Below, in pieces: positions 19,545 through 44,496 of a stretch of 64,000 nucleotides of DNA (position 1 is its first letter; every line of letters begins with the position of its first letter). Under the pieces are notes generated by a model that saw nothing but the letters and a program-made list of their open reading frames with translations, was not told the DNA's origin and did no database searches. This stretch comes from a virus. Taxonomy: Duplodnaviria > Caudoviricetes. The translations under genes and the position numbers were made by a program. Location of the stretch: the IMG/VR virus record IMGVR_UViG_3300032272_000006, positions 19,754 through 83,753 of that record, one strand, 5' to 3'.

Positions 19545-19760
19545 ATGTCTACGGAATTCAAACGAGTCGAAGCGAAGACGGAAGCCGACAAGCCAGTGGG
19601 CATGACGCAGTTCTGCGGCCCCAAGGTTGGCGAAGGCGTCGACCGGAAGCGGATGCAGTTCACGGTCGGCGACCAGTGGGTCGATATGTCTCGGGCCCAG
19701 GTTGTCGCAATGGTGGCAGCAATGACTGAGTGGGTCGCCGGCGAACGGGAGGAGGAATAA
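19545..19760 (+). CDS. Small early hypothetical protein (cassette 1)
   Basis: AGGAG RBS in the conserved leader. Confidence 0.7.
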   Translation: MSTEFKRVEAKTEADKPVGMTQFCGPKVGEGVDRKRMQFTVGDQWVDMSRAQVVAMVAAMTEWVAGEREEE

Positions 19761-33596: not shown

Positions 33597-34178
33597 ATGC
33601 TACCAATAATGGTACCTTTAGACAGAACAACACAATGGATGGAAACGCATGCTGGAAAGCAGCTGTTCCTTCCCGTCACAGAAGACATGATCGAGATCGA
33701 AGACATCGCCCACGCCCTTTCGATGCAGTGCCGCTACGCTGGTCACACGAAGCAATTCTACTCGGTCGCGGAGCATTGCTGCCTCGTGTCGGATTGGGTG
33801 TGGCGCTCGATGAAAAATCATCCAGACTCTGAGCACCGAGTGAAGACAGCCCTTGCCGCGCTCATGCACGATGCGTCCGAGGCGTACTTGGTCGACATTC
33901 CGAAACCCATCAAGCCCTACCTCACCAACTACGCCGAGCTGGAACAGCAGATCGAAGTCGTGGTCGCGGACAAGTACGGCTTTGAGTACCCATATGCGAA
34001 ATTGATCAAAGAGGCGGACGTCCGTATACTGCTCGACGAGCGAGCACAGCTCTTTGATTGGTCAGGACACGACTGGGAGTTGCCTGTGTCCGAGCCCCTC
34101 GGTGTCCATATCGACGCACTCTCGCCGCAACAGGCGAAGGCGCAATTTCTTGAAAGGTTCCACGACTATGCCAGCTAA
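33597..34178 (+). CDS. HD-domain 5'-deoxynucleotidase-like phosphohydrolase
   Basis: IEDIAHALSMQCRYAGH...YSVAEH...LMHDASEAY. Confidence 0.85.
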   Translation: MLPIMVPLDRTTQWMETHAGKQLFLPVTEDMIEIEDIAHALSMQCRYAGHTKQFYSVAEHCCLVSDWVWRSMKNHPDSEHRVKTALAALMHDASEAYLVDIPKPIKPYLTNYAELEQQIEVVVADKYGFEYPYAKLIKEADVRILLDERAQLFDWSGHDWELPVSEPLGVHIDALSPQQAKAQFLERFHDYAS

Positions 34179-34674
34179 AGAACATTTGATCACGCGGGAG
34201 ATCGGCATCGACGCCGGTCACCGCGTTACCTACCACGGGTCGAAGTGTCGCAACATTCATGGGCACCGATACACGATCCAGGCGACCTGCGCCGGCCCGT
34301 TGTTCGATCAAGGCGAGCAGGAGGGCATGGTCCTCGACTTCGGCTTCCTCAAGGAAGAAATGATGGACGTCATTGATGGGGCCTGCGACCATGGCTTCAT
34401 TATGTGGAACAAGGATCCTTTGCTCGGTACCTTCTTGAACATGGATCCCGCCACATTGACGCATGAGACGGAGGCGCATCGCATCACCGAGACGGCGGTC
34501 GGCAAGATGTATGTTGTCCCGTTCGTCCCGACGGCCGAGAACCTCGCGCGTCACTGGTTCGACCTACTCGCCAAGCGCGTCAACGAACGAACCGATGGGC
34601 AGGCGCGGATGTATCAGATCACGGTGTGGGAGACGCCAAATTGCTCTGCCCAATATCCCTCGGTGCCCACCTAG
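34168..34674 (+). CDS. queD: 6-carboxy-5,6,7,8-tetrahydropterin synthase
   Basis: DAGHR, CRNIHGHRY, GMVLDFG, PTAENLA, VWETP; start set at ATG 34168. Confidence 0.92.
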   Translation: MPAKEHLITREIGIDAGHRVTYHGSKCRNIHGHRYTIQATCAGPLFDQGEQEGMVLDFGFLKEEMMDVIDGACDHGFIMWNKDPLLGTFLNMDPATLTHETEAHRITETAVGKMYVVPFVPTAENLARHWFDLLAKRVNERTDGQARMYQITVWETPNCSAQYPSVPT

Positions 34675-34862: not shown

Positions 34863-35582
34863 ATGTATATCGTAACTCAGAATTCAAAAGGCGTTGCCGC
34901 AGTTTTCACCGCGAACGAAGACGAGGCAAACTTGTTCAACAACGAGCCGGAGCTTTTCGCGGACGACCTCAGCGGTTGGGTGATCAGCGAGGCGGCTGAT
35001 CTCGAGGCAAACTTGTCCAAAGGTCAGATGGTCGCCATTTATAATTCACTGGCGGGTGAGAATCTGGTCAAGTTCCAGAACAAGGCGATGGGCGCCCAGC
35101 GCACAATGCCCTTGGTCGAGCGCAACGCCAAGCCGTTCGATGAACTCGGTGCCAAGCCGGTTTCGACGGATGACGGCACGACCTTGGTCGATCATCTCGA
35201 CCACATCGTTGTCCAAGACAAGCCGAAGTCGCGTGGTCGCTCGGACAAGGGCATCCACAACATCCCGCCCAAAGATAGGGCGGTGGCTTGCCGTGCTGGA
35301 ACGAAGCAGCAGGCTCTCATTGACGCTCTCGCGAAGGGTGCGACGATGGCCGACCTGCTCGACGCGACGTCCGCGAAGAACGGCGGCAAGGATTGGACGG
35401 AGGGTTCTGTCAAGTCGGGCTTCTACGAAGACGTCAACACCAAGAAGGGTTATGGCGTCCGGACGGAAGTTGTCGTCGAAGGCGATCCTTCGACCTACAA
35501 GTACTTCCTCGTGTACCCTGAAGGCGCCAGCGCACCGTTGGCACCTACCTCGAAAAAGAAAGTGGAGGATACCGACTCCTAA
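34863..35582 (+). CDS. Hypothetical protein with possible C-terminal winged-helix (DUF3489-like)
   Basis: GTKQQALIDALAKGATMADL...W...SVKSGF; has its own promoter and leader. Confidence 0.5.
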   Translation: MYIVTQNSKGVAAVFTANEDEANLFNNEPELFADDLSGWVISEAADLEANLSKGQMVAIYNSLAGENLVKFQNKAMGAQRTMPLVERNAKPFDELGAKPVSTDDGTTLVDHLDHIVVQDKPKSRGRSDKGIHNIPPKDRAVACRAGTKQQALIDALAKGATMADLLDATSAKNGGKDWTEGSVKSGFYEDVNTKKGYGVRTEVVVEGDPSTYKYFLVYPEGASAPLAPTSKKKVEDTDS

Positions 35583-35710: not shown

Positions 35711-36565
35711 ATGGCGAAAGCGACTGTTGTCCTTTCCGGAGGACAGGATTCTACGACCTGCCTCTATTGGGCACTAAATCAAACCTTCGACGAAGTAGCC
35801 GCGGTCACGTTTGACTACGGTCAACGACACCGCACCGAGATCGACTCGGCAATCAAGATCGCTCGGATGGCAGGCATTGCCAAGCACGTCGTCCTCGAGC
35901 TGTCACCCGACACCCTGCGCTCAGATTCGCCTCTCACGTCAGGCAACGACCTCGAGCAGTACGACGACCACGCATCCTTGCCCGGCGGTCTCGAGAAGAC
36001 CTTCGTGCCGATGCGCAACCAAACCTTCCTGACAATCGCCGCAGCCGAGGCCTACCGCAACGGGCACCAAATGCTGATCACCGGCACCTGCGAAGAGGAC
36101 TTCGGAGGCTATCCTGATTGCCGCCGCGTCTTCATCGACGCGCTCGAGGCTGCTTGCAACCTAGGCACGTTCACGGGCAAGGACGGGGCGCTCGGCAAGT
36201 TGACGATCTCCACGCCTCTCATGACGTTGACGAAGGCCCAGAGCGTTGACCTCGCGATCCGGCTCGGTTGGGATTGCTGGAAAGCACTTGCCTACAGTCA
36301 TACGGCCTACGACGGCGCCTTCCCGCCCATCGGTCACGATCACGCTACCTTGCTGCGAGCCAAAGGGTTCGAGGAGCACGGCACGCCTGACCCGCTGGTC
36401 ATTCGCGCAATCGTCGAGGCCGGCATGGAAATCCCGGAGTCCGAAAATTACGACGTAGTGTCGGGCCTCCTCAACGATCCTTCCTTCCACAACGAGAACG
36501 AGATGTCCTTGCTTCTCGCCGTATGGGAAGAGATGCTAAACGGGTTGGGTGCGACCGATGGTTGA
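35711..36565 (+). CDS. queC: 7-cyano-7-deazaguanine synthase
   Basis: [30 protein letters not shown]. Confidence 0.93.
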
Positions 36566-37520
36566 GAAAGTACGTCTCGACCACGCAACGGTCGAAGCCG
36601 CCGTCCAGAAGATGTTCAACAACATCGTTGACACGGTTCCCGGCTACTCATTGAACGTCTACGGAATCCCGCGCGGCGGAATCCCTATCGCGTACCTGTT
36701 CAAATCCATTTGCGAGAAGACATGCAAGTTCGCCGTCTCGGTCGTCGATGATCCCACCGAAGCAGATATCTTCGTGGACGACATCTACGACACAGGCAAG
36801 ACCGCTAAACGGTACGCCGACGAGTATGGCAAGCCTGTGTTCTGGGCGTTCGACAAAGCGCACGAGGAGGGCCCCGACCTATTTGGAATGAAGGTGCCCA
36901 AAGACAAATGGATTGTCTTCCCTTGGGAGGTGTCCGACGACCACGAAGAGGCCGGCGAGGATACGGTCACCCGCATGCTATCAAGGATAGGAGAAGACCC
37001 TAATCGTGAAGGCCTTTTGGAAACACCTGCTCGCGTTGTTAAAGCGTGGAATACATGGTTCGGCGGTTATGGTGTGGAACCAAGCTCTGTTCTCAAAGTA
37101 TTCAAGGATGGCTCGGAAGGCGTTGACGAGATGGTGCTGGAAACCGATATACCGGTTTACTCGCACTGCGAGCACCACCTTGCTCCTATATTCGGCGTTG
37201 CTCATGTCGGGTATATTCCTAATGGGGGCGTTGTTGGGCTTTCTAAGCTTGTGCGCCTTGTTGACGTGTTCGCGCGTCGTCTGCAGGTGCAAGAGCGCCT
37301 TACCAACCAGATCGCGGACGCACTCCAAGAAGAGTTGGGTGCGCTTGGTGTGGGAGTTGTCCTGCAGTGCCGTCACTTCTGCATGGAATCGCGCGGCGTT
37401 AAATCGTCGGGCGTGATCACGACCACGTCCGCCTTACGCGGTGCGCTCAAAGACGAGCACGACGCCCGGGCGGAATTTCTTTCCCTGATCAACATGACTC
37501 GAAAAGGTGGACCATTATGA
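36558..37520 (+). CDS. folE: Fusion: Gpt-like phosphoribosyltransferase plus GTP cyclohydrolase I
   Basis: N-terminal [23 protein letters not shown]; C-terminal [46 protein letters not shown]. Confidence 0.92.
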
Positions 37521-38324: not shown

Positions 38325-38984
38325 ATGGCAATGGTCGACTCGCTCGACAAGATTATTTCTATCTACGTCGCCTGCGTTGCGGCGGAGTCGTTCGAGTATA
38401 AGGGCAAGGTTTACAATCCCAAGCCCCTGCAGGTGTCGCCTTTGATTTTCAGGGGCTTCACTTGCCCGGCTGGGTGTGGTGGATGCTGCCCACGATTCTC
38501 ACTCGACTATTTGCCTTACGAGGACCTTCCTGATCTCGATTTGCAGCCGCGAGTTATAGAGGTGATCACGACAAACGGCGTCCAAGAAGTCAAGATCCTG
38601 TCCGACAAGCAGGACGACCACAAGAATCACCACTGCCGCAACCTCAACTTGGATGACGGGCGGTGCGGTATTCACGGTCGGCAGCCGTTCTCGTGCGACT
38701 TCGAATTGATCCGGTTTCTCGAGTTCGCTCCTACCGAGGTCAGAGATGCGCGGAGCGTCGTCACCCAGAAGTTATTCGGGCGAGGATGGGCGATGCTTCG
38801 AGTTGATGGAGAGCGAGGCGCTCTGTGCGAGATGACACCGGCGGACGCTCATACCCAGGCCGAGACTCTGCGGAAACTTCGCCGCCTTCAAGAATGGTCG
38901 GCACATTTTGGAATCCGTACTAAACTCGGGACGATTATGGAATGGGTCGCTTCGGGCCCGCACAACGAACCACTGGTAGTATAG
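38325..38984 (+). CDS. YkgJ/CxxCxxCC-like cysteine-cluster protein
   Basis: CPAGCGGCC...CRNL...GRCGIHGRQPFSC; start set at ATG 38325. Confidence 0.7.
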   Translation: MAMVDSLDKIISIYVACVAAESFEYKGKVYNPKPLQVSPLIFRGFTCPAGCGGCCPRFSLDYLPYEDLPDLDLQPRVIEVITTNGVQEVKILSDKQDDHKNHHCRNLNLDDGRCGIHGRQPFSCDFELIRFLEFAPTEVRDARSVVTQKLFGRGWAMLRVDGERGALCEMTPADAHTQAETLRKLRRLQEWSAHFGIRTKLGTIMEWVASGPHNEPLVV

Positions 38985-39259: not shown

Positions 39260-40300
39260 ATGTTCTTCTATATGAGCGGCACGCCCCGCAACGACGTTCT
39301 GCAACGCCAGGAAAATAGCCTTTGCTCGCATCGCCTATTCTCACTTCATGGTGACTACCAGCGAGCGGTTCACAAATGGCTTGACGACGTTCTGGAAGAT
39401 CCTTCGCACCCCTACCCTCGTTCGATCATGCTCGATTCCGGCGCCTTCACGGCGTGGAACGCGGGCGGCGAGGTAACGGTGGACGAAGTGTTCGACTCCT
39501 ACAGCCGGTTCGAGGAAAAGTGCGGCGACCTGTTCGATGAAATCTGGATGGTCAACCTCGATAAGATCCCAGGCAAGCGAGGCGAAGATCCTACCGTCCA
39601 AGAGATCAACGATGCCTTGAGGATCTCGGATATCAACTACAAGAAATTGGTCGACCGTTTCGGTGAACGAATCTTGCCGGTGTATCATCAAGGCGAGGAT
39701 ACAGGGCGGCTTCTCGAACTTGCTAGCATGGCAAAGTACATTTGTGTCTCGCCTCGAAATGACATGCCCGAGTTGAAACGAGCCAAGTGGGCGGGTGAGA
39801 AACACAAAGCCCTCGACAAGCACGCGCCTGGGACGATGACTCACGGTCTCGCGACGACGGGCAACAACATGCTACGAGACGTGAAGTGGACGTCCGTCGA
39901 TTCCGCGGCCTGGATCCTTCACGCTGGTTTTGGTAAGGTTGACATTTTCGAAGGCGACCGGTATCGGAATTACTTCGTGTCGGATGATCCTCGCAAGGCC
40001 GGGTTGATGAACCAGCATTGGGGCGCCCAGATCAGCAACAACCCCGAGACAGGTGCTGTGGAAGTAGCCGTGCCCGAGGCGGTAGAGCGGGGTGGTAAAT
40101 TGATTGGTCCTGGCATGCCTACGTCCCAGCGACTGCGCATCCGAGAACGCATCGAGAAGTATGGCTTCAACACCGAGGAGATCGTCACAAACTCCCGGGC
40201 CCGGTCAATTGTCTGCATGGGCGAACTAGCTGACTATTGCCGCTGGGCAACAGAATACCAAAAACGAAAGACGCGGCAAGACGGCCTGGGTCTAGATTGA
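39260..40300 (+). CDS. dpdA: TGT-like DNA 7-deazaguanine transglycosylase
   Basis: MLDSGAFTAW, NLDKIPG, LPVYHQGE, HGLA, SVDSAAW; lies in the que cluster; no bacterial TGT Zn motif seen. Confidence 0.82.
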   Translation: MFFYMSGTPRNDVLQRQENSLCSHRLFSLHGDYQRAVHKWLDDVLEDPSHPYPRSIMLDSGAFTAWNAGGEVTVDEVFDSYSRFEEKCGDLFDEIWMVNLDKIPGKRGEDPTVQEINDALRISDINYKKLVDRFGERILPVYHQGEDTGRLLELASMAKYICVSPRNDMPELKRAKWAGEKHKALDKHAPGTMTHGLATTGNNMLRDVKWTSVDSAAWILHAGFGKVDIFEGDRYRNYFVSDDPRKAGLMNQHWGAQISNNPETGAVEVAVPEAVERGGKLIGPGMPTSQRLRIRERIEKYGFNTEEIVTNSRARSIVCMGELADYCRWATEYQKRKTRQDGLGLD

Positions 40301-43479: not shown

Positions 43480-43787
43480 TGAAATTCTCAGAATTTATGG
43501 GCAACTTGTTCAATCAGGTTGCACCCGTTCCGAAGCGCATGCCGCTCAAGACCGGTCGCCCTTGGAACGTCGGTCAAGACGGGCGTGTCTATCGGCATCC
43601 CGGCGTCGTCGTGGCGCGGAACATTCGCCAGCACGTCACGAAGGAAGGCAAGCCTTGTTTCCAAGCCGTCAAGGGCGGTAAGCGGCCACCCATCGCGACA
43701 ATGGTGCACCGCGCCGTGCCCGTCGAGGTCTTCAACGCCCGGAAAAGCGCAATCAAGAGAAAGGCAATGGGTCGCTATGTTTGGTAA
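43479..43787 (+). CDS. Small basic hypothetical protein
   Basis: TAATG coupling. Confidence 0.5.
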   Translation: MKFSEFMGNLFNQVAPVPKRMPLKTGRPWNVGQDGRVYRHPGVVVARNIRQHVTKEGKPCFQAVKGGKRPPIATMVHRAVPVEVFNARKSAIKRKAMGRYVW

Positions 43788-44496
43788 GAACACCCCACGC
43801 AGTCGTGAGCACGGCACCTCCCTTCAGTATCGGGAGGTGTTCTACACGATCCAGGGAGAGGGCCCATTCGCGGGTCGCCCTGCGACGTTCATCCGCCTAA
43901 CCGGCTGTAATCTCAAATGCTGGTTCTGCGATACTGAGTGGGACGACGAGAAAGACGCCTCGTTGAACTTTCAAGACATCGCGGACCTTGCACGAGACGC
44001 CTCGCCGCCTCATTCGACGCTCGCGGTTCTAACGGGCGGAGAGCCCATGCGTCAGGATTTGGGCCCGCTCATACAGGCTCTCCAGAGAAACGGGTTCTGT
44101 GACGTGCAGATCGAGACGGCTGGGTCATTCTGGCAGGCCTGCGTCCTTTGGCCAGGAGTGACGACCGTCATCTCACCCAAGACGGCGAAAGTCAACCCGG
44201 CCTTTAGGAAATACGATGCGAACTTCTTCTGGAAATACGTCCTCAAAGCCGGTGACATTGACCCAAGCGACGGCTTGCCTTCGGGCGAGTTTCAAAGAGC
44301 TGGGAATGGTGTTGGCGGAGGAGCTCCGGCTCGACCACCTGCTGACGCTATTGAGCAAGGTCGTGTCTCGCTTCAACCGATGGACGAGCACAATCTCAGC
44401 TCGATGGAAAACAACGCGAAGGCGGTAGCCAAGTCGGCCATGGAATTCGGCTACAACGCCGGCCTGCAGATGCACAAATACCTAATGGTTGACTGA
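43777..44496 (+). CDS. queE: 7-carboxy-7-deazaguanine synthase (radical SAM)
   Basis: FYTIQGEG, FIRLTGCNLKCWFCDT, LTGGEP, ISPK, SLQP, LQMHK. Confidence 0.93.
   Translation: MFGKNTPRSREHGTSLQYREVFYTIQGEGPFAGRPATFIRLTGCNLKCWFCDTEWDDEKDASLNFQDIADLARDASPPHSTLAVLTGGEPMRQDLGPLIQALQRNGFCDVQIETAGSFWQACVLWPGVTTVISPKTAKVNPAFRKYDANFFWKYVLKAGDIDPSDGLPSGEFQRAGNGVGGGAPARPPADAIEQGRVSLQPMDEHNLSSMENNAKAVAKSAMEFGYNAGLQMHKYLMVD

Follow-up and report, generated by a model that had tools for sequence, protein, structure and literature searches.

A loop-less Gpt-like phosphoribosyltransferase domain linked to GTP cyclohydrolase I in viral 7-deazaguanine gene clusters

Introduction

Why would the GTP cyclohydrolase I (FolE) of a viral 7-deazaguanine gene cluster carry a phosphoribosyltransferase (PRT) domain at its N-terminus? 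This question is raised by a 64,000-nucleotide stretch of DNA from a virus of the Caudoviricetes (positions 19,754 to 83,753 of the IMG/VR record IMGVR_UViG_3300032272_000006), hereafter the window, in which a single open reading frame (ORF) joins a Gpt-like mini type I PRT domain to FolE. The source record is 83.7 kb long with a completeness rated at 100%, and the 7-deazaguanine cluster on the + strand of the window encodes QueD, QueE, QueC, QueF and a DpdA-like enzyme. The modification of phage DNA with 7-deazaguanines is under active study in anti-restriction and anti-CRISPR research, and the genes involved are considered to be known for the most part. We show here that the PRT domain is a recurrent and widespread component of viral 7-deazaguanine clusters, and we consider what it might do there.

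Results

A Gpt-like domain fused in frame to FolE

The fusion ORF runs uninterrupted from an ATG at 36558 (with an alternative GTG at 36549) to a TGA at 37518-37520. Its ATG overlaps the stop codon of queC (ATGGTTGA) and its own stop overlaps the start of queF (ATGA). The ATG start is supported since the homologues P0002 and P0003 likewise begin with MVEK. A full-length AlphaFold2 (AF2) model with a predicted local distance difference test (pLDDT) score of 91 displays two folded domains separated by a short linker near aa 124-131. The first-pass annotation of the window had described the protein as a Gpt-like type I PRT fused in frame to FolE, and this description was borne out by hidden Markov model (HMM), pairwise, fold and conservation evidence. 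Moreover, the three PRT motifs that it had quoted were all found, namely PRGG at aa 38-41, the phosphoribosyl pyrophosphate (PRPP)-binding motif at aa 72-82 and WIVFPWE at aa 118-124.

The N-terminal domain matched the NCBIfam Gpt model NF006613 with an E-value of 2.1e-6 (27.4 bits, under the curated cut-off of 138), and this model was the best NCBIfam family for the window domain as well as for all six relatives tested. Matches were also obtained to phrog_8995 'phosphoribosyl transferase' (E 2.7e-9), to E. coli Gpt by BLASTP (E 1e-6) and to the E. coli xanthine-guanine PRT (XGPRT) 1a95 by phmmer (E 1.4e-3), and the type I PRT family PF00156 gave 15.9 bits, under its gathering threshold of 26.3. 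Because the PRT domain scores under every curated cut-off, such proteins are called only "GTP cyclohydrolase" in databases. Indeed, each of the 13 fused homologues with precomputed Pfam annotation has PF01227 and lacks PF00156 or any other PRT family. An AF2 model of the PRT domain built on 150 relatives (pLDDT 88, predicted template modelling score 0.83) exhibits the alpha/beta parallel-sheet core typical of PRTs. The HMM and structure searches proposed in the first-pass annotation both led to Gpt and other 6-oxopurine PRTs; on Foldseek the model matched 4zfn, 5bqp, 1a95, 6kp5 and 1vdm with a probability of 1.0, the top matches being the Sulfolobus hypoxanthine-guanine-xanthine PRT (HGXPRT), the E. 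coli and Yersinia XGPRTs and the Pyrococcus purine PRT, at a template modelling (TM) score of ~0.65.

A sensitive search against 1.84 billion representatives returned 884 clusters of PRT-domain homologues at E <= 1e-3; by length and architecture these divide into free proteins (115-200 aa) and fusions (280-345 aa). In 150 relatives P38, R39, G40, G41, D74, D75, D78, G80, T82, W118, P122, W123 and E124 are nearly invariant, with D74, D75, G80 and T82 conserved in at least 98% and D78 kept in 142 (95%). Across the 150 relatives the PRT active-site residues are under purifying selection, to the same extent in fused and unfused forms. On alignment to E. coli Gpt the conserved residues match R37, D88, D89, D92, K115, W134 and D140, and I119 matches I135. 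We take these seven Gpt residues to provide the pyrophosphate, ribose, N7, O6, stacking and exocyclic-group contacts of the XGPRT structures; K115 is presumably the lysine that binds the 6-oxo group and D92, aligned with D78 of the window domain, the Asp acting on the purine N7.

A feature that the first-pass annotation had not recorded is the absence from the window domain of ~25 Gpt residues (roughly Gpt 58-83), which form a hairpin with a flexible loop and are deleted between the PRGG helix and the PRPP motif. The G41-D74 spacer is 32 aa in the window domain, with a family median of 27 aa, and ~48 aa in E. coli Gpt by its numbering. Given that this hairpin is missing, the PRT domain is a loop-less, shortened descendant of bacterial Gpt. 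A viral cluster of the ESM Atlas, made up of 277-aa proteins that all have ParB_N (PF02195), was also observed; part of it aligns to residues 1-129 of the query PRT (TM-score 0.78 by the query), and it may represent a further PRT fusion.

The C-terminal domain matches PF01227 over aa 138-314 (2.5e-68) and TIGR00063 with 212 bits, above the cut-off of 181.6. Among 44 fused homologues C204, H207, C275, R159, S229, K230, R233 and R279 show little or no variation. We take C204, H207 and C275 to be the zinc ligands and R159, K162, S229, K230, R233 and R279 to be the triphosphate-binding residues. Since the latter are kept, GTP would remain the FolE substrate, and the domain is an intact, normal GTP cyclohydrolase I.

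Distribution in viral 7-deazaguanine clusters and in cells

The IMG/VR counts given here cover 80 loci that were retrieved by the PRT domain. FolE or Que genes are present in 75 of these viral loci. FolE itself was found in 73, fused to the PRT in 51 and in the others mostly adjacent to it, in either gene order; QueE was found in 68-69, QueD in 52-64 and QueC in 46. The survey of co-occurrence with dpdA that the first-pass annotation had called for showed DpdA in 51-55 of the 80 loci, and many of the remaining loci without detected DpdA are short contigs. Free PRT copies in metagenomes are situated among queE, queD and folE.

In cultured phages the PRT-FolE fusion occurs in 34 records, i.e. 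~34 of the 405 phage records with a FolE match, and every annotated record among them labels the protein as GTP cyclohydrolase only. These include the Pseudomonas phages PaMx25, NP1, JG012, JG054, Quinobequin-P09 and others, phages of Stenotrophomonas, Xanthomonas and Variovorax, Vibrio phage VpKK5 and its relatives, and Sphingomonas phage MMDA13. The gene order queE-queC-queD-[PRT-folE]-dpdA was seen in all four cultured-phage records inspected. In PaMx25 (JQ067084.3, L001:6880-7810) the fused gene is annotated as two, a wrong-frame hypothetical PaMx25_38 and a truncated folE; the true fused ORF lies at L001:6917-7810 and encodes 297 aa.

Stand-alone copies are found in other phages. In Flavobacterium phage immuto_2-6A the PRT is located immediately upstream of FolE, in the order QueD-QueE-PRT-FolE-DpdA3-DpdN-QueF, and in Cellulophaga phage phiST it is beside a ribonucleotide reductase (RNR) gene. 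Synechococcus phage BUCT-ZZ01 displays queE-XGPRT-x-queD-folE and the PA5oct-like jumbo phages gpt-queE. In Brevundimonas phage StAshley a loop-bearing Gpt-type PRT (35% identity to E. coli Gpt, E 6e-19) directly follows FolE, beside genes for a deoxynucleoside monophosphate (dNMP) kinase and RNR, and QueC, QueD and QueE are encoded in the same phage. On a rough FastTree tree with weak support, 54 of 55 fused PRT domains fall in one clade nested among the free ones, which suggests that a PRT already resident in deazaguanine clusters was fused once, at an early date.

Outside of viruses, the fusion was found in three Dehalococcoidia metagenome-assembled chromosomes (L101:7881-8789, L105 and L106). 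Next to the first of these are genes for two carboxylesterases and for large proteins that match no Pfam family. Furthermore, free loop-less copies of 127 aa occur in cellular-looking, possibly archaeal contexts away from Que genes, where they may be ordinary salvage enzymes.

Detection of DpdA and recurrent neighbours

In 13 IMG/VR loci apparently without DpdA (L071:5661-6470 and 12 more, e.g. L073, L082, L086 and L094) a 270-aa family was identified as DpdA3. It is encoded just upstream of queC, has the motifs IIMDN, HLLGC and SxDTSNP, and is missed by PF01702 and phrog_887; on comparison it matched DpdA3 (hhalign 82%, E 1e-5) and the DpdA of immuto_2-6A (E 7e-52). Two complete phage genomes of ~172 kb had been read as lacking DpdA, PF01702 and phrog_887 being silent, and this reading was overturned by the DpdA3 identification. 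A 267-aa neighbour in another locus (L012), suspected of being DpdA, turned out to be QueE. As for the window itself, only phrog_887 identifies its DpdA-like protein, neither Pfam nor NCBIfam giving a match at E 0.01; hence standard annotation would miss it.

The recurrent neighbour families with a Pfam match are a terminase, PolB, a MazG/PRA-PH-like protein, a glycosyltransferase and Hsp20. Guanine deaminase is absent from the ten recurrent neighbour families annotated, smaller families having been left out. The MazG/PRA-PH-like NTP pyrophosphohydrolase (PF01503) is present in 12 loci of the DpdA3 group, and in one of them (L092:3781-4335) it directly follows FolE; it might be directed at (d)GTP or H2NTP. 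In addition, many PRT-FolE clusters show QueD and QueE and no QueC by phmmer (e.g. L026, L027, L036, L039-L042, L057, L059 and L077), a search by which a divergent QueC was possibly missed. Such clusters may end at 7-carboxy-7-deazaguanine (CDG), or proceed to 2'-deoxy-7-deazaguanine (dDG) via a QueD-like DpdL.

Organisation of the window locus

The features of the fusion ORF and of the surrounding cluster are collected in Table 1. Replication genes are also present in the window record, among them those for ThyX, an SNF2 helicase, Pam3 gp32-34-like proteins, a primase and further helicases. The TIGR03139 match of the window QueF stops near aa 140 and the C-terminal residues beyond it (~125) have no family assigned; QueF is rare among PRT-FolE loci (2 of 80). 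The CxxCxxCC protein and the HD/YfbR-like 5'-deoxynucleotidase are candidate accessory genes of the modification system.

Table 1. Positions of the PRT-FolE fusion, its domains and motifs, and the neighbouring genes in the window
Feature	Positions	Strand	Remarks
HD/YfbR-like 5'-deoxynucleotidase	33597-34178	+	phrog_318; directly upstream of queD
queD	34168-34674	+	neighbouring gene of the cluster
gene with no assignment	34863-35582	+	between queD and queC
queC	35711-36565	+	upstream neighbour of the PRT-FolE ORF, translationally coupled
PRT-FolE fusion ORF	36558-37520	+	320 aa plus stop
Gpt-like mini type I PRT domain, aa 1-126	36558-36935	+	HMM, pairwise and fold matches
PRGG loop, aa 38-41	36669-36680	+	aligned with Gpt S36-R37-G38-G39; 96-100% conserved in 150 relatives
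PRPP-binding motif, aa 72-82	36771-36803	+	D74, D75 and D78 aligned with Gpt D88, D89 and D92
K100	36855-36857	+	aligned with Gpt K115; K or R in 120 of 150 relatives
WIVFPWE, aa 118-124	36909-36929	+	aligned with Gpt W134-I135...P138-W139-D140, purine-binding strand
short acidic linker, aa 127-130	36936-36947	+	lower-confidence stretch of the model; block aa 121-130 has mean pLDDT 68
FolE domain, aa 131-320	36948-37517	+	CEHH at 37167-37178, HFC at 37374-37382
queF with extra C-terminal stretch of ~125 aa	37517-38320	+	downstream neighbour of the PRT-FolE ORF, coupled
CxxCxxCC metal-binding protein	38328-38984	+	PF03692, phrog_16018; between queF and dpdA
DpdA-like DNA transglycosylase	39260-40300	+	phrog_887, 1.5e-46
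queE	43519-44496	+	match at 43798-44484; 3 kb beyond dpdA

Discussion

Guanine salvage as a possible role

The reading that we consider most probable is that the PRT domain salvages guanine to GMP, which is then returned as GTP to the fused FolE, a role to which we give an even chance. The FolE domain opens the route from GTP by way of 7-cyano-7-deazaguanine (preQ0) to 7-aminomethyl-7-deazaguanine (preQ1), for which this phage has the complete set of QueD, QueE, QueC and QueF, and DpdA would be the main source of free guanine during infection, one guanine being expelled for each 7-deazaguanine inserted. A catalytically active PRT domain would convert this free guanine (perhaps also xanthine or hypoxanthine) and PRPP to GMP, which host guanylate kinase and nucleoside-diphosphate kinase would convert to GTP for use by the fused FolE. 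The base taken out of the DNA would become the feedstock for its replacement, and the exchange reaction would be relieved of a competitor; that free guanine competes with the deazaguanine in this reaction we infer by analogy with the established mechanism of tRNA-guanine transglycosylase. In phages that replace all of their G, each modified position would cost one dGTP and one GTP and release one guanine, so that the extra demand would fall by about half if this guanine were recycled to GMP. Complete replacement of G has been reported for immuto_2-6A and phiST (Cui et al. 2023, PMC10516641); therefore guanine release in these phages would be stoichiometric.

Guanine salvage, the first of the two roles proposed in the first-pass annotation, is favoured because of the Gpt origin of the domain with the D92-aligned Asp kept, its linkage to FolE, a FolE that would still use GTP, and the presence of the PRT in full-G-replacing phages. 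It is also consistent with StAshley, in which the full-length, loop-bearing Gpt-type enzyme adjoins FolE. Several points weigh on the other side. The deleted hairpin bears the flexible catalytic loop of type I PRTs, and its loss could lower or abolish PRT turnover. Many hosts have a Gpt or Hpt of their own. The fusion to FolE cannot be a matter of substrate channelling, since GMP has to pass through two kinase steps to become GTP, and the linkage of the PRT is tighter to FolE than to DpdA. Furthermore, no QueC, QueD, QueE or DpdA gene lies within 8 kb of the three Dehalococcoidia fusions, and thus DpdA cannot be the guanine source everywhere. Finally, the best match of the fold search, the Sulfolobus HGXPRT, is also the enzyme with which the authors of TubE, a proven CDG PRT, aligned their protein (PMC6112128).

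Is the domain catalytic, and on which base?

The missing catalytic loop is also what would be expected if the domain were a non-catalytic module binding guanine, GMP, PRPP or (p)ppGpp, which would regulate or scaffold FolE as PyrR and PurR do on the PRT fold. The fold matches include a Gpt-like protein with bound ppGpp (5vog) and PyrR, and a partner of FolE would be linked to FolE itself, as seen here by fusion or adjacency in both orders, and would be expected in Dehalococcoidia without Que genes or DpdA. However, the full catalytic set, with the general-base Asp and the PRGG arginine, is conserved as in enzymes whereas a binder would need only part of it; this conservation is equal in fused and free forms, and loop-less copies stand alone in cellular-looking contexts. 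On balance a purely regulatory domain seems quite improbable.

If the domain is active, its substrate could be a 7-deazaguanine base, as for ToyH and TubE: preQ0, preQ1 or CDG and PRPP would give a deazaguanine nucleotide, to be used in a pre-replicative route into DNA, as a toxic analogue against the host or in the re-use of modified bases. Like ToyH and TubE, the PRT is found inside FolE-QueD-QueE(-QueC) clusters. TubE has been shown to use CDG and PRPP, and 4Z1O, the Sulfolobus HGXPRT of its authors' alignment, is the top structural match here (PMC6112128). The many PRT-FolE loci without QueC would stop at CDG, i.e. the TubE substrate, and without the loop the active site would be more open and might, speculatively, admit a base substituted at position 7. 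Moreover, the nucleoside of 7-amido-7-deazaguanine (ADG) was detected in cells infected by phage CP220, as cited by Cui et al. (PMC10516641). Against this, DpdA, which uses the free base, is present in most of the loci, with DpdA3 in the 13 that seemed to be without it, and the enzyme with which the PRT is associated is the one that begins the pathway and not the one that ends it; for these reasons the phosphoribosylation of preQ0 or preQ1, the second role proposed in the first-pass annotation, is ranked below guanine salvage. In addition, Cui et al. conclude that insertion is post-replicative in all known cases (PMC10516641). A kinase dedicated to the product is absent from the recurrent neighbour families annotated, and the Gpt-type enzyme of StAshley retains the loop. 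The D92-aligned Asp, to which we attributed a role at N7, is kept in 95% of relatives, yet 7-deazapurines have no N7. A deazaguanine-base PRT is therefore regarded as unlikely. The fuller proposal, in which the mini-PRT would be a phage ToyH/TubE that feeds a nucleotide-level branch beside DpdA, with pre-replicative incorporation or toyocamycin-like nucleotides that poison the host, is slightly less probable again.

Lastly, guanine salvage might operate with no special tie to DpdA, the PRT being a general auxiliary gene of purine salvage that supplies the guanine-nucleotide pool from host bases for replication and FolE. This proposal agrees with the location of the PRT among RNR and dNMP kinase genes in phiST and StAshley, and with the lack of a nearby DpdA in the case of the Dehalococcoidia fusions. 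A generic pool gene should not, however, be restricted to 7-deazaguanine clusters or fused to FolE, and FolE or Que genes accompany the PRT in nearly all of the viral loci. We hold such a general role to be very improbable, the least probable of the readings considered here.

Relation to published work and significance

Both folds and the pathway are already known, and some free copies are annotated as 'xanthine phosphoribosyltransferase'. What seems to be new, and apparently undiscussed in the literature, is that phage deazaguanine systems include a PRT. Full-text literature searches found no paper discussing a PRT domain in this context; by word search, phosphoribosyl, PRPP and Gpt have zero occurrences in Hutinet 2019, Cui 2023 (PMC10516641) and the iggy paper, and a jumbo-phage review mentions PRTases solely for Ter systems. 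An extra, widespread component has thus been invisible to standard annotation because the domain lies under the Pfam and NCBIfam cut-offs. Recycling, if true, would explain how phages replacing up to all of their G meet a doubled guanine-nucleotide demand and avoid inhibition by the released base. An active domain would be a natural PRT that functions without the flexible loop. A PRT acting on deazaguanine bases would reveal an unrecognised nucleotide branch and contradict the view that phage deazaguanine modification is purely post-replicative. Either outcome is directly testable in the cultured Pseudomonas phages PaMx25, NP1 and JG012.

Comparison with known systems

E. coli Gpt/XGPRT (b0238; PDB 1A95, 1NUL and 4JLS; NF006613) has the same fold and the same best-matching family as the window domain, with which it shares the PRGG loop, the DD..DTG.T PRPP motif, the K115-aligned lysine and the W-I-x-x-P-W-D/E purine strand. 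Unlike E. coli Gpt, to which it has ~24% overall identity, the window domain has lost the ~25-residue hairpin and is fused to FolE. The top Foldseek matches, the S. solfataricus HGXPRT (4Z1O, 4ZFN and 5BQP) and the P. horikoshii purine PRT (1VDM), both at E ~1e-6, are likewise small 6-oxopurine PRTs; however, they are stand-alone cellular enzymes of 150-180 aa with 19-25% identity to the window domain.

As regards genomic setting, a parallel is given by TubE (tubercidin) and ToyH (toyocamycin), 7-deazapurine PRTs which, like the window PRT, are purine-type PRTs in a FolE-QueD-QueE cluster. Their clusters make free nucleoside antibiotics and have no transglycosylase, whereas the window cluster holds DpdA. 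TubE is an unfused protein of 194 aa, and its likeness to the window PRT rests on the alignment with 4Z1O by the TubE authors.

The ordinary phage FolE proteins of deazaguanine clusters, e.g. those of Dinoroseobacter phage R5C and Pseudanabaena phage Pan1, have 68-72% identity to the window FolE and the same role in the pathway, but their matches span the FolE half of the query only (residues 137/138-313). Finally, the Gat-QueC of phage 9g, a glutamine amidotransferase fused to QueC, likewise joins an accessory domain to a core enzyme of the pathway (PMC6884629, PMC10516641). Gat-QueC alters the product, giving 2'-deoxyarchaeosine (dG+), whereas the proposed effect of the PRT domain is on supply and leaves the structure of the product as it is.

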